IMG/VR virus record: IMGVR_UViG_3300045767_000001 | Coordinates: 1 to 60,016 of that record | DNA length: 60,016 nucleotides | Source of the DNA: a virus | Lineage: Duplodnaviria; Caudoviricetes | Direction: 5' to 3' (one strand) | Part shown: positions 1,269-57,932 of the stretch, in pieces | Position numbering within the stretch: position 1 is the stretch's first letter | Layout: every line of letters begins with the position of its first letter | Program-made: the position numbers and the translations under genes | Notes under the pieces: model-generated | What the model saw: the letters and a program-made list of their open reading frames with translations, nothing else | Told to the model about the DNA's origin: nothing | Database searches by the model: none

Positions 1269-1376
1269 CGTGAGTGCGAGTATCCATCGAACCTCCCGAC
1301 TCGTTCAGGCTCGCCCGCTGGGCGGCCAGGACTGCGCCCACCATCGACGCCTTCCGAGCATGTCGCTCGGGCGAGA

Positions 1377-1382
1377 TAGAAT
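1377..1382 (+). promoter_or_regulatory. -10 element for the tRNA-nucleotidyltransferase unit
   Basis: TAGAAT 7 nt upstream of the tRNA 5' end. Confidence 0.5.
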
Positions 1383-1389
1383 CCGGCAC

Positions 1390-1462
1390 AGCGGAGTGGA
1401 GCAGTTGGTAGCTCGTCGGGCCCATAACCCGAAGGTCGCTGGTTCGAGTCCAGCCTCCGCCA
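1390..1462 (+). tRNA. Initiator tRNA-fMet(CAT), CCA not encoded
   Basis: Full cloverleaf; A1:C72 mismatch; three G-C pairs closing the anticodon loop (GGG/CCC); GGTTCGAGTCC T-arm; loop CCCATAA. Confidence 0.92.
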
Positions 1463-1463
1463 T

Positions 1464-2249
1464 ATGGCAATCCCGAAGTACATCGTCGAACAGAACCCCG
1501 GGATCGGGGAGTGGTGTGTCCTGCACGGCTGGCGCGGGTCCGTTGCCCACGGCATGTACGAGCCGCCCGAGAACCCCGACAGCATCGATGACAAGGACAC
1601 GATGGCAATCTGCGTGCCCCAGCTCGACCACTACTACGGGCTGAGCGAGTTCGGCACCCACGGCACCCGGGAGATCAAGCAGGGCGAGTGGGACATTGTC
1701 GTCTACGAGGCACGCAAGGCCGTCCGGATGCTGAGCCAGGGCAACCCGAACATCCTTAGCCTGCTGTGGCTCCCTGAGAACGGGTACATCCAGCGCACCC
1801 CGGCCGGTGACCTTCTCGTTGAGAACCGGGACGCGTTCCTCGGCCGCCATGTCTACCAGTCCTTCGTCGGCTACGCCAAGGGCCAGTTCCACAAAATGAC
1901 CCATGGCGCGTATCGGGGCTACATGGGCGAGAAGCGCAAGGAAATCGTCGCCCGTTACGGCTACGACACCAAGAACGCCGCCCACCTAATCCGGCTGCTG
2001 CGGGTCGGTATCGAGCTCCTGCACGACGGCTATCTACGGGTAGACCGCGGCGGCCTCGACGCGACCGAGCTGCTGGACATCAAGCACGGCAAGTGGACAC
2101 TCGGCCAAGTACAGGATGAGGCCATGGTGCTATTCCGCCGCGCCGAAGAAGCCTACGACTGTTCCAGTCTCCCGGCCGCCTCGGACCGCGAGCGCATCAA
2201 CGACCTGTGTGTTGCTGTCGTTTCCGATGCGCTGAGCGCTTCTGTCTGA
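1464..2249 (+). CDS. Pol-beta superfamily nucleotidyltransferase (RlaP/YcgL/T4 NrdC.11-like, Nuc-transf)
   Basis: GSVAHG...DDKD motif, D-x-V-x-YE-x-x-K, GNPNIL and GYDTKNAAHLIRLL are family-typical. Confidence 0.85.
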   Translation: MAIPKYIVEQNPGIGEWCVLHGWRGSVAHGMYEPPENPDSIDDKDTMAICVPQLDHYYGLSEFGTHGTREIKQGEWDIVVYEARKAVRMLSQGNPNILSLLWLPENGYIQRTPAGDLLVENRDAFLGRHVYQSFVGYAKGQFHKMTHGAYRGYMGEKRKEIVARYGYDTKNAAHLIRLLRVGIELLHDGYLRVDRGGLDATELLDIKHGKWTLGQVQDEAMVLFRRAEEAYDCSSLPAASDRERINDLCVAVVSDALSASV

Positions 2250-2304: not shown

Positions 2305-2628
2305 CTACTCTGCGGCTTCGGTTCCAGCCTTCAGCGCGTTTGTGACCGCTGAGACTTTTTCGGCCAGCGAGTCCACTTCGGCTTCCGAGATCGACCCGGC
2401 CTTCAGTTCCGTGACCTCCGTGGCGAGAGCGGCAAGCTCCGCGACGGCGGCTGTCTCTGCGCCTTCGAGTGCTGCGACATCGGCGGCGAGTGCTTCGATT
2501 GCTGCGGACATGGTTTCGATCCTTTCGATCAGGGTTTCGAGTTCGCTGCCACAGAAGACGGCACCGAGGTGCCCGCGCCGCGCAGGGCTTCGGTCTAGCT
2601 GCCGGTTGGTTGGTTTACGACGGAACAT
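2305..2628 (-). CDS. Small coiled-coil protein
   Basis: ATG overlaps the upstream stop; heptad Ala/Glu/Leu pattern. Confidence 0.55.
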   Translation of the reverse strand: MFRRKPTNRQLDRSPARRGHLGAVFCGSELETLIERIETMSAAIEALAADVAALEGAETAAVAELAALATEVTELKAGSISEAEVDSLAEKVSAVTNALKAGTEAAE

Positions 2629-3674
2629 CAGGTCACCGGCACCGTGAACGTGTCCACAGCCGGGGTCACATTGCCCTGCGCGTCCACGCCGATGTACTCG
2701 CCGGCGATCGACGAGGTCGTGACAGTGAGCCGGAGATACCCCCACTGGGTGGCGTCGAACGCGCGCAGCACAATCCCCGGCGCGACCTGCATCCCGGGCG
2801 TCGCGTCCGAGGCCATCGCGTGAAGGTTCCGGTATCCCGATGCGCCGCAGACGATGTGCGGGAGGATCTTGCCGTCAAACGCGGTCATCGTCCGCTCGAA
2901 GTACTGGAAATCGTGCACATGGCCTGAGAGCACGAGATCCGGGCACCGGCCCGCGGCGGTGTACGCTTCGTCGAGCATCGTGCCCATCTGCTGCGAGCCG
3001 CCGTGCCGCGCGTCGCAGCTCAGCGGCGGATGGTGCAGGGCGACGATGAGCGCGACGCCATGAGGCGCGGCCTTCAGCTCGCCGACGAGCCACTCACGCT
3101 GGTCGGGCTCCACGACGCCGCCGGAGGGCACGTTTGTCGCCAGGCCGATCACCGTCAGCAGCGGATCGGTCAGCGTCCAGAAGGCGTTGGGCTGGGTCAT
3201 TGTGTCCCTGTGGAACTCGGCCATCTCGGGCAGCAGTTCGGGCTTCGTCGCGCCGAGGTAGCGCATGAAGTTCGCGTAGCTGAACGCGTCGTGGTTGCCG
3301 CTGATCCCCATCAGCGCGCGGTTGTATTCGGCGTACGCCTCGAAGACCTGGGTGACCCACGCCTGCTCTTCTGATTCGTAGTAGGCCCAGTCACCGACGT
3401 GGTAGGCGAACTCGACGCCGTTGGAGAGGTCGGCGATCATCGCCTTGATCACGTCGATCTGCGGGTTCGGATCAGTGATCCCTCCTGAATCTCCAAGCAC
3501 GTGGAGTATGCGGACCGATGGGTTGAGATCCTCGACGACGTCGGCGAGCGCCAGGCGGTACGGCGCGGGCCCGGTGGGTGCAGGCAGTGCGTGAAAGCCT
3601 TCGTCGGTGGCGAGCGTCTGGTCCTTCTGGACCTGCTCGCGCGCTGTGGACGGGGCGATGCCAAGGCGTCTCAT
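2628..3674 (-). CDS. Calcineurin-like metallophosphoesterase (purple acid phosphatase-like)
   Basis: GDSG, GDWAY, GNHD, HH and GHVH metal-binding motifs. Confidence 0.88.
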   Translation of the reverse strand: MRRLGIAPSTAREQVQKDQTLATDEGFHALPAPTGPAPYRLALADVVEDLNPSVRILHVLGDSGGITDPNPQIDVIKAMIADLSNGVEFAYHVGDWAYYESEEQAWVTQVFEAYAEYNRALMGISGNHDAFSYANFMRYLGATKPELLPEMAEFHRDTMTQPNAFWTLTDPLLTVIGLATNVPSGGVVEPDQREWLVGELKAAPHGVALIVALHHPPLSCDARHGGSQQMGTMLDEAYTAAGRCPDLVLSGHVHDFQYFERTMTAFDGKILPHIVCGASGYRNLHAMASDATPGMQVAPGIVLRAFDATQWGYLRLTVTTSSIAGEYIGVDAQGNVTPAVDTFTVPVT

Positions 3675-4441: not shown

Positions 4442-4864
4442 ATGGAATGGCCGAAGGGCAAGAAGCGCTCGCCCGAGGAACGCGATCGAATCAGCGCCGG
4501 GCTGAAAGGCAGCCCGGCGCGCGTAGCCTACCACAAGCGTCGTAAGGGAGACGGCGACCGACTACGCACAAGCCCGCGAGCCATCGCGCAGCGAGCTCAT
4601 ATCAACGCCCCCGAGAGAAAGGCTGGCCCGAACAACCCCGCCTGGAAGGGCGACGATGCCGGGTACCTCGCAATGCACGAACGGGTTTACCGAGCGCGTG
4701 GCAGCGCGAGCGTCTATCCCTGCGAGCACTGTGGCGACGCCGAGCGAAAGCATCACTGGGCATCGGTGTCGGGGAACTACGCCGATGTCAACGACTTCAT
4801 TCCCCTATGCGTGCCGTGCCACTCGACCTTCGACTGTGCGAATCGGCGCCAGCGAGCTACTTGA
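4442..4864 (+). CDS. HNH-type homing endonuclease (NUMOD3-like plus His-Me finger)
   Basis: NPAWKGD..GY.AMH, CEHCG, HHWA, LCVPCH; TACAAT -10 lies 6 nt before the ATG; inserted antisense in the lysis region. Confidence 0.75.
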   Translation: MEWPKGKKRSPEERDRISAGLKGSPARVAYHKRRKGDGDRLRTSPRAIAQRAHINAPERKAGPNNPAWKGDDAGYLAMHERVYRARGSASVYPCEHCGDAERKHHWASVSGNYADVNDFIPLCVPCHSTFDCANRRQRAT

Positions 4865-57674: not shown

Positions 57675-57932
57675 CACTGTCCTTCCTGTCGCTGGTTATG
57701 GTCTGCACGGACGGCAGGGCTGGGGGGAGCCCGGACACCGCACCGGTAGACGCTCGGGTTATGGGCCCTGCGTCGCCGTCAGCCAAGGTGATGAAGCTCG
57801 GCGAGGCTGCATTACCGGCTGATACAGCGGCGTCGCGCGCCGCCCGTGCAGAATCAAGATCCAGAACCGACTCGTCCCAGCCGTCAAGCTGAGAATCGGT
57901 CAGCGTGACCGGACGGTCGTCGTCGAAGGGGA

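Follow-up and report, generated by a model that had tools for sequence, protein, structure and literature searches.

The IMG/VR record IMGVR_UViG_3300045767_000001 derives from an uncultured soil phage and comprises 60,016 nt (65% GC, with a direct terminal repeat of 127 nt), which were analyzed at full length and are referred to below as the window. Its plus strand carries, between positions 1377 and 2249, a compact unit composed of a promoter-like hexamer, an initiator-type transfer RNA (tRNA) gene and a gene for a nucleotidyltransferase (NTase) of the RlaP family. The anatomy of this unit is real and non-random. The reading preferred here, held with somewhat less than even confidence, is that of a one-off unit punctuated by its tRNA, in which processing of the precursor would free a nearly leaderless NTase messenger RNA (mRNA), and in which the enzyme would extend RNA ends and not add CCA tails.

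Anatomy of the tRNA-nucleotidyltransferase unit

The unit opens with the hexamer TAGAAT (1377-1382), a -10-like sequence that, judging from its rarity and position, is the putative promoter. Seven bases, read directly off the sequence (1383-1389), lie between it and the tRNA, and the spacing given in a preliminary description of this DNA is correct. The plus strand of the record holds a single TAGAAT and the minus strand three, i.e., about 0.03 per kb per strand, and two of the minus-strand copies (at 377 and 23693) are likewise intergenic; the generic pattern TANNNT has a frequency of 1.5 per kb per strand. The chance of encountering TAGAAT within the interval of five positions before the tRNA is about 2 in 10,000, and that for the loose TANNNT is less than 1 in 100. 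Given this rarity, chance probably does not account for its location at 7 nt from the tRNA start.

The tRNA gene (1390-1462) is the only one called by ARAGORN in the whole record, with anticodon CAT, and it matches Rfam family RF00005 over its full length (62.5 bits, E 3.5e-11). It is 73 nt long, from A1390 at position 1 to the discriminator A1462 (A73), and the bases after the discriminator are TAT, hence CCA is not encoded. Bacterial initiator tRNAs are defined by a CAU anticodon, three consecutive G:C pairs adjoining the anticodon loop (29-31:39-41), the pair A11:U24 and an unpaired 1:72. The phage tRNA possesses all of these features (CAU, G29-G31:C39-C41, A11:U24 and unpaired 1:72), and the assignment as an initiator-type, CCA-less tRNA is therefore confirmed. 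The base identities at 1:72 are unlike the usual initiator ones, A1 standing opposite C72, which Rfam scores as a non-standard pair. The D stem is GAGC/GCTC and the anticodon arm is TCGGG-CCCATAA-CCCGA, so that the loop CCCAUAA carries C33.

In a metagenome-assembled genome (MAG) of Solirubrobacterales that also contains a close relative of the NTase, the best match of the phage tRNA is the initiator tRNA, with 90% identity over positions 2-71, and the elongator tRNA-Met of the same MAG is clearly unlike it. The phage and MAG initiators differ at 1:72 (A and C in the phage, C and U in the MAG), at one D-loop base, at position 33 (C in the phage, U in the MAG), and at two stem pairs changed on both sides, namely A6:U67 versus G6:C67 and U51:A63 versus A51:U63. 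Because these compensatory changes keep the stems paired, the phage tRNA is probably a working molecule rather than a remnant. A pattern search of 110 viral loci found C33 in 3 of 75 initiator-type tRNAs and A at position 1 in 10 of the 68 distinct ones; no relative of the NTase is encoded in those 110 loci.

Several other tRNA-like sequences deserve mention. A second exact copy of the 15-nt anticodon stem-loop, C33 included, is found at 57754-57768 on the minus strand, with 0.01 copies expected by chance; it is intergenic, lies on the main coding strand with a GACGC/GCGTC stem around it, and could act as a decoy or as a mimic in regulation. At 326-391 on the plus strand there is a weak tRNA-like match whose T arm is shortened (30.1 bits in Rfam, where the gathering score is 29; E 0.028; fold z-score -1.87), which ARAGORN does not call, and the minus strand at this site carries the TAGAAT at 377, seemingly placed like a promoter for early genes across the ends of the record. 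The IMG/VR contig L292 (tRNA at 1327-1401, minus strand) contains an A1-type initiator with TATACT ending 6 nt before position 1, which makes it another candidate for transcription that begins at the first base of a tRNA. Finally, in one Solirubrobacterales MAG (G001; loci L243, L244 and L245, at ~2.54-2.59 Mb) the 3' half of the initiator tRNA, i.e., the anticodon and everything 3' of it, recurs as three 38-nt copies. These copies are spaced at 19-26 kb, each precedes a terminator-like hairpin, and they lie on the strand opposite to the full gene at 2.525 Mb; they look like scars of elements integrating into the formylmethionine (fMet) tRNA gene.

A single base, T1463 (U74 of the precursor), separates the discriminator from the ATG of the NTase gene (1464-1466; whole gene 1464-2249), as read off the sequence, and no Shine-Dalgarno (SD) core (GGAG, GAGG, AGGA, AAGG or GGGA) is present in 1444-1461, which upholds the preliminary description on both points. 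Upstream, the in-frame stop is TAA1425, located within the anticodon loop, and ATG1464 is the sole ATG, GTG or TTG before codon 31. A start at codon 31 or 47 would lose G25-S26, and at codon 47 D43 and D45 as well; ATG1464 is the only usable start because it alone keeps the G-S and DxD motifs, and a downstream start with its own ribosome-binding site does not replace it. The coding character is evident from the beginning, since G or C ends 26 of the first 30 codons. A liberal search detected SD cores before 41 of the 67 other genes of the phage, often in the classical form GGAGG or AAGGAG, so that the NTase gene without one is a real peculiarity. The first 33 nt of its open reading frame (ORF) are poorer in GC than the genome as a whole (48% versus 65%), and the centroid fold leaves most of them unpaired. 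Sequencing runs listed for this DNA included none of RNA; two DNA runs showed what is probably the source contig and, from a second metagenome, two identical 151-nt pieces as well as diverged fragments, with nothing bridging the tRNA-NTase junction.

The gene product is a solo, 261-aa NTase, whose RlaP-like identity, proposed earlier, was verified by Pfam, PHROG and alignment. The match to PF10127 (RlaP), at 71.4 bits (E 1.3e-19), is well above the curated cut-off of 23, with residues 25-189 covering profile positions 27-168 of 249; in the relatives at loci L028 and L080 the match extends over almost all of the profile. PHROG 388, annotated as 'nucleotidyltransferase', is matched at 4.7e-40. 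The catalytic motif residues are G25-S26, D43-x-D45 and D77, and in 36 homologues D42, D43, K44, D45 and D77 are invariant and G25 and S26 nearly so; the assignment to the Pol-beta motifs is a reading of this alignment, and the RlaP paper describes three strictly conserved aspartates. The N-terminus has the form M-x-[VIL]-P-[RK], as in most of the homologues. An AlphaFold2 model (mean confidence, pLDDT, 91) consists of an N-terminal NTase domain and a C-terminal helical domain. Its best matches among solved folds are Hailong HalB (VIA Z 8.8, root-mean-square deviation 4.9, 177 aligned residues) and aminoglycoside nucleotidyltransferases, with TM-scores of 0.33-0.43 (query-length normalized), which are low and therefore indicate the general fold only; the copy of the PDB that was searched did not include the PfRlaP structure. 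A sequence search of the PDB gave nothing meaningful, and searches of the NTase against PADLOC and NCBIfam gave no match.

The unit runs antisense to its surroundings, as had been stated: GC3-based gene calling (GC3 being the GC content at third codon positions) over the whole record assigns 68 of its 82 ORFs to the minus strand. Of the 14 plus-strand ORFs, most have low GC3 and may be spurious, and the NTase ORF is the clear exception (GC3 0.84, GC2 0.40). Another plus-strand gene is an HNH-endonuclease-like ORF in the lysis region (4442-4864). Divergent from the tRNA promoter region is a minus-strand ORF (843-1268) with no match in Pfam and PHROGs, whose C-terminal stretch resembles a transglycosylase or Rpf-type motif. 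The gene set that Pfam and PHROG matches identify is myovirus-like and includes a portal, a prohead protease, a capsid, a tail-sheath domain and a baseplate wedge, as well as an endolysin, an NlpC/P60 domain, an ERF recombinase, a PD-(D/E)XK nuclease, a C5 methylase and an HNH protein.

Proposed expression from a tRNA precursor, and its alternatives

No TANNNT occurs within 1383-1463, so the interval contains no internal -10 motif. Because both an internal -10 motif and an SD are missing, the NTase would be made only from RNA that starts upstream of the tRNA, and co-transcription of the two genes, with a leader of 0-1 nt left after 3' processing, would be the simplest reading. Transcription is expected to start 6-8 nt after TAGAAT, i.e., at 1389-1391, at or next to tRNA position 1, and the start nucleotide would be A1, a purine, instead of the usual pyrimidine at tRNA position 1. 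The tRNA 3'-processing nuclease of the host, RNase Z in CCA-less systems, would then cleave at or just after A73. This cut would create the 3' end of the tRNA, to be completed by the host CCA enzyme, and the same cut would free the NTase mRNA with a 5' phosphate and a leader of 0-1 nt. Actinomycetota ribosomes would read such an mRNA by the leaderless route, favored by the extra initiator tRNA.

What is known of Actinomycetota makes this processing model plausible. In Streptomyces coelicolor, 53 of 65 tRNAs lack an encoded CCA, 264 mRNAs have leaders shorter than 10 nt, and the 3' processing of CCA-less tRNAs has been observed 'within a few nucleotides downstream' (PMC4681348), so that a cut after U74 is conceivable here. 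Leaderless mRNAs are common in Mycobacterium and Streptomyces (PMC4681348, PMC9031893, PMC4633059), and leaderless translation is reported to be strongly enhanced by extra fMet-tRNA and to require a 5' phosphate (PMC9031893). Like these mRNAs and that of phage lambda cI, the predicted NTase message would open with its start codon, or very nearly so, and have no SD; unlike them, its 5' end would be made by RNA processing and carry a monophosphate, instead of arising from transcription initiation. RNase Z matches were obtained in all four Solirubrobacterales MAGs examined, two of them above the curated cut-off.

As an observation on the family itself, 10 of the 15 closest relatives (L082-L084, L163, L165, L166, L169, L170, L173 and L185) have a GACAA(A/G)A-like, A-rich sequence abutting the NTase start and no GGAGG-type SD there, and some have a -10-like hexamer 8-11 nt upstream. 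This clade of NTases may often be expressed with very short leaders or none, because the sequence before the start is A-rich instead of an SD and, in some, a -10-like hexamer is close by.

A number of points weigh against the punctuated unit. A scan of 900-2800 for the two-hexamer sigma-70 consensus returned no promoter, with no convincing -35 element, and a terminator scan of the plus strand 3' of the ORF found no terminator-like site. A short GC hairpin 32 nt past the stop codon (2281-2296) is a possible transcript end, weak and unsupported: it has no T-run, the terminator scan does not call it, and the fold of 2245-2330 has a z-score of +0.38, with 123 of 200 shuffles folding as well. The folds of the trailer, of the mRNA 5' end and of the tRNA-mRNA precursor are likewise no better than those of shuffled sequences. 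If cleavage took place directly behind A73, U74 would stay in front of the start codon, and this single extra base is the weak point of the model, as mycobacteria were reported to find an RTG precisely at +1 'necessary and sufficient' (PMC4633059) and leaderless translation falls with the distance of the start codon from the 5' end (PMC9031893). Solirubrobacterales is the probable host lineage only insofar as the closest relatives of both the tRNA and the NTase point to it. Further, the usual partner of RlaP is missing, because neither RtcB (PF01139) nor a PF09414 RNA ligase is encoded by the phage at E<=0.1, other ligase families lying outside the search, and RtcB is absent from the four Solirubrobacterales MAGs.

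To these points must be added the lack of conservation. The NTase family comprises 2201 proteins at E<=0.001 among 3703 candidates, the best non-self match having 78% identity; among named phages, 494 records match, all with less than 60% identity. The genomic context was compared in 240 loci encoding NTase relatives (80 each from viruses, metagenomes and genomes, some being the same contig in two collections, e.g., L005 and L113), of which the closest belong to Solirubrobacterales MAGs (71-75% identity). A tRNA is present anywhere in the locus in 18 cases and absent from the other 222. In none of the 240 loci does a tRNA end within 3 nt upstream of the NTase start, and the upstream regions of the 15 closest relatives contain no tRNA; the upstream comparison did not extend to the 76-78% identical homologues (P0002-P0004 and P0006), whose upstream regions could still hold one. 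A junction pattern (T-arm, 11-14 nt, ATG and a W..LHG motif 42-48 nt later), which recovered the window as its control, had no match among the viral contigs of IMG/VR. A conserved tRNA-NTase cassette, an idea that the preliminary description had offered for inspection in relatives, is thus not sustained, and the layout is a singleton, known from one phage only. Searches of IMG/VR with the metallophosphoesterase, the portal protein or the NTase alone detected no sister phage.

Looser associations are more frequent, tRNAs being near the NTase gene in 11 of the 80 viral loci as a raw, uncontrolled count. A tRNA-Tyr lies 17 nt upstream of the NTase gene at L028, and a tRNA-Glu 34 nt upstream at L055, where another tRNA is found 5 nt downstream. 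At the remaining loci the tRNA follows the gene, namely a tRNA-Pro at 0 nt (L067), a tRNA-Met at 3 nt (L070/L071) and a tRNA-Glu at 5 nt (L156). As in the phage unit, the RlaP-like genes of these tRNA clusters are on the same strand as the tRNA and tight to it, which implies that they are co-transcribed, and this recurrence in distant phages speaks for the reading preferred here. However, the clusters contain multiple tRNAs, the tRNA is more often downstream (0-5 nt), and an initiator tRNA is directly upstream in none of them; the upstream spacers of L028 and L055 (17 and 34 nt) carry an obvious SD, which counts against that reading. What remains is a recurrent, loose association of the NTase with phage tRNA genes, as judged from gene order, plus one exact fusion.

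The strongest alternative is that of incidental compaction. According to this explanation, which is possible but rather doubtful, the two genes adjoin by chance and perhaps share a transcript, the 1-nt spacing has no regulatory meaning, and the NTase is translated, maybe weakly, by SD-independent initiation on whatever RNA exists. It agrees with the uniqueness of the layout (0 of 240 loci and no pattern match), with gene-tRNA gaps of 0-5 nt being common in phage tRNA clusters, and with the NTase being a solitary, mobile gene. Indeed, a tblastn comparison of the flanking phage proteins with the 240 loci found no common neighbor beside the NTase, and the adjacent metallophosphoesterase (2628-3674, minus strand) is beside none of its relatives; in 11 Solirubrobacterales loci, the NTase is the only common gene, and it is alone on its strand in at least two. 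On the other hand, compaction of this kind is rare. In 2.4 Mb of loci, 380 distinct tRNAs have 400 nt or more of sequence behind them, and only six of these are followed within 8 nt by an ORF of at least 100 codons. Two of the six ORFs start with ATG, namely those of this phage and L080, and several of the others look spurious. Incidental compaction also leaves aside the missing SD in a phage where SD cores are common, and the rare TAGAAT positioned exactly for a start at tRNA +1.

Several similar cases were considered individually. At L080 (2272-2924), a tRNA-Leu(CAA) with an encoded CCA is followed after 5 nt by a 186-aa ORF that starts with ATG, has no SD and belongs to no known family, and that ends 1 nt before the RlaP gene. 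The TTG directly after an initiator tRNA at L309 was rejected, as it looks like a separate promoter followed by a downstream ATG, and so was the ORF after the tRNA at L359, apparently an antisense shadow of the beginning of a gene. In Nocardia phage NTR1, a comparable tRNA is present without annotation, but ~400 nt separate it from the next ORF.

Role of the enzyme

The phage NTase shares with the RlaP repair enzymes of the Pseudomonas RtcB-RlaP-RtcA operons and with T4 NrdC.11 (PMC12776372, PMC7824862) the PF10127 match, the intact GS and DxD...D motifs, and the arrangement of an N-terminal NTase domain and a C-terminal helical domain, the last being known from its AlphaFold2 model. At variance with the Pseudomonas operons, it is not accompanied by an RtcB or PF09414 ligase and its neighbors are not conserved. 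PfRlaP and PaRlaP add one or two nucleoside monophosphates to RNA 3'-OH ends with little specificity for the nucleoside triphosphate (NTP), and RlaP prefers broken tRNA and requires a 3'-OH (PMC12776372); in jumbo phages, RlaP tracks RNA ligases (PMC7824862). By analogy, the phage NTase more likely refills one or two nucleotides on damaged RNA ends, and the ligase-free setting points to tRNA 3' tails as its substrate.

The earlier suggestion that the enzyme adds or repairs CCA was not borne out, and CCA addition by this NTase is unlikely. In its specific form, which we consider improbable, the NTase would mature or repair the CCA end of the CCA-less tRNA transcribed with it. The two genes do adjoin, and RlaP enzymes do extend RNA 3'-OH ends (PMC12776372). 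However, CCA is not encoded in any of the seven tRNA genes sampled from the Solirubrobacterales lineage, and all four MAGs examined from this order contain genes of the PolyA_pol/CCA family; the NTase matches PF10127 and not PF01743 (the PolyA_pol head of class II CCA-adding enzymes), which a six-frame search did not detect elsewhere in the phage either. The limited NTP specificity of RlaP, the addition of only one or two nucleotides (PMC12776372), and the 222 of 240 relatives' loci without a tRNA are also difficult to reconcile with a dedicated CCA enzyme.

Two more explanations were given very little weight. The tRNA could be the remnant of an attachment site, or a decoy, with the NTase gene merely next in line, a view encouraged by the three 38-nt tRNA copies of the Solirubrobacterales MAG, which resemble integration scars, and by the second anticodon stem-loop at 57754-57768. 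It is opposed by the full-length, high-scoring cloverleaf with its compensatory stem changes and its own -10 element, and further weakened because the phage has no tyrosine integrase (PF00589; serine recombinases were outside the search); the attachment-site idea was rejected on account of the full-length tRNA and the missing PF00589 integrase. Equally remote is a silent or decaying NTase gene that lost its ribosome-binding site upon insertion of the tRNA, which would explain the missing SD, retained by relatives beside tRNAs, and the unique layout, but conflicts with the intact ORF, the invariant catalytic residues, the GC3 of 0.84 and the 26 of 30 first codons ending in G or C.

Known systems and biological meaning

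The preliminary description knew of no two-part cassette of this kind, yet its principle is already known from mitochondria, where excision of the tRNAs encoded in mitochondrial DNA is reported to release most of the mature RNAs and mitoribosomes are reported to translate leaderless mRNAs. The likeness is that the phage ORF opens at the 3' boundary of a tRNA, without leader or SD, and that a tRNA 3' endonuclease would free it. The differences are that the phage unit belongs to a bacterial virus, comprises one tRNA and one ORF with their own putative promoter rather than a genome-wide polycistron, and has the initiator itself as its tRNA. The open-access literature that was searched contained no bacterial or phage case of a leaderless mRNA excised by way of a tRNA.

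VapC toxins are known to cleave initiator tRNA. That the NTase is paired with a variant C33 initiator tRNA suggests a defense of the phage against tRNA-targeting nucleases of the host. For phage tRNAs, changes in the anticodon loop have been proposed as a way to evade such nucleases (eLife 2023, PMC10264068), and a defense nuclease that cleaves tRNA tails was reported in 2026 (PMC12851939). The phage tRNA resembles the former in having C33 in place of the U33 of the host-lineage initiator, but for this host, in contrast to those cases, a nuclease targeting this tRNA is not known. The C33 loop and its copy at 57754-57768 fit the theme of nuclease evasion and prove nothing; by analogy, the C33 tRNA and the solo 3'-end extender possibly serve counter-defense.

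A more ambitious version, which is speculative and rather unlikely, makes the unit a self-reinforcing counterpart of mitochondrial punctuation in a bacterial virus. In this version, one cut would yield both a nuclease-evading C33 tRNA and a leaderless mRNA that this tRNA boosts, and the two products would sustain initiation while the host attacks initiator tRNA or tRNA tails. RNase P would not be needed, because the promoter would fire exactly at the purine A1, and the stem-loop copy at 57754-57768 might contribute as a decoy.

The finding carries modest weight, because it concerns a single uncultured genome whose layout is known from sequence alone, and the transcript, its processing, leaderless translation and function are what we infer from that layout. 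It adds a case to the supply of tRNAs and the repair of tRNA ends by phages as counter-defense, here with an RlaP-type enzyme that has no ligase partner. If the processing model is true, the unit would represent a compact, natural leaderless mRNA of the bacterial type that is generated by tRNA excision instead of transcription initiation, and the initiator tRNA and the kind of message it prefers would come from one precursor in a fixed ratio. It would then serve as a model in Actinomycetota for the tolerance of 5' leaders, for the role of the 5' monophosphate, and for the effect of initiator-tRNA dosage on initiation.

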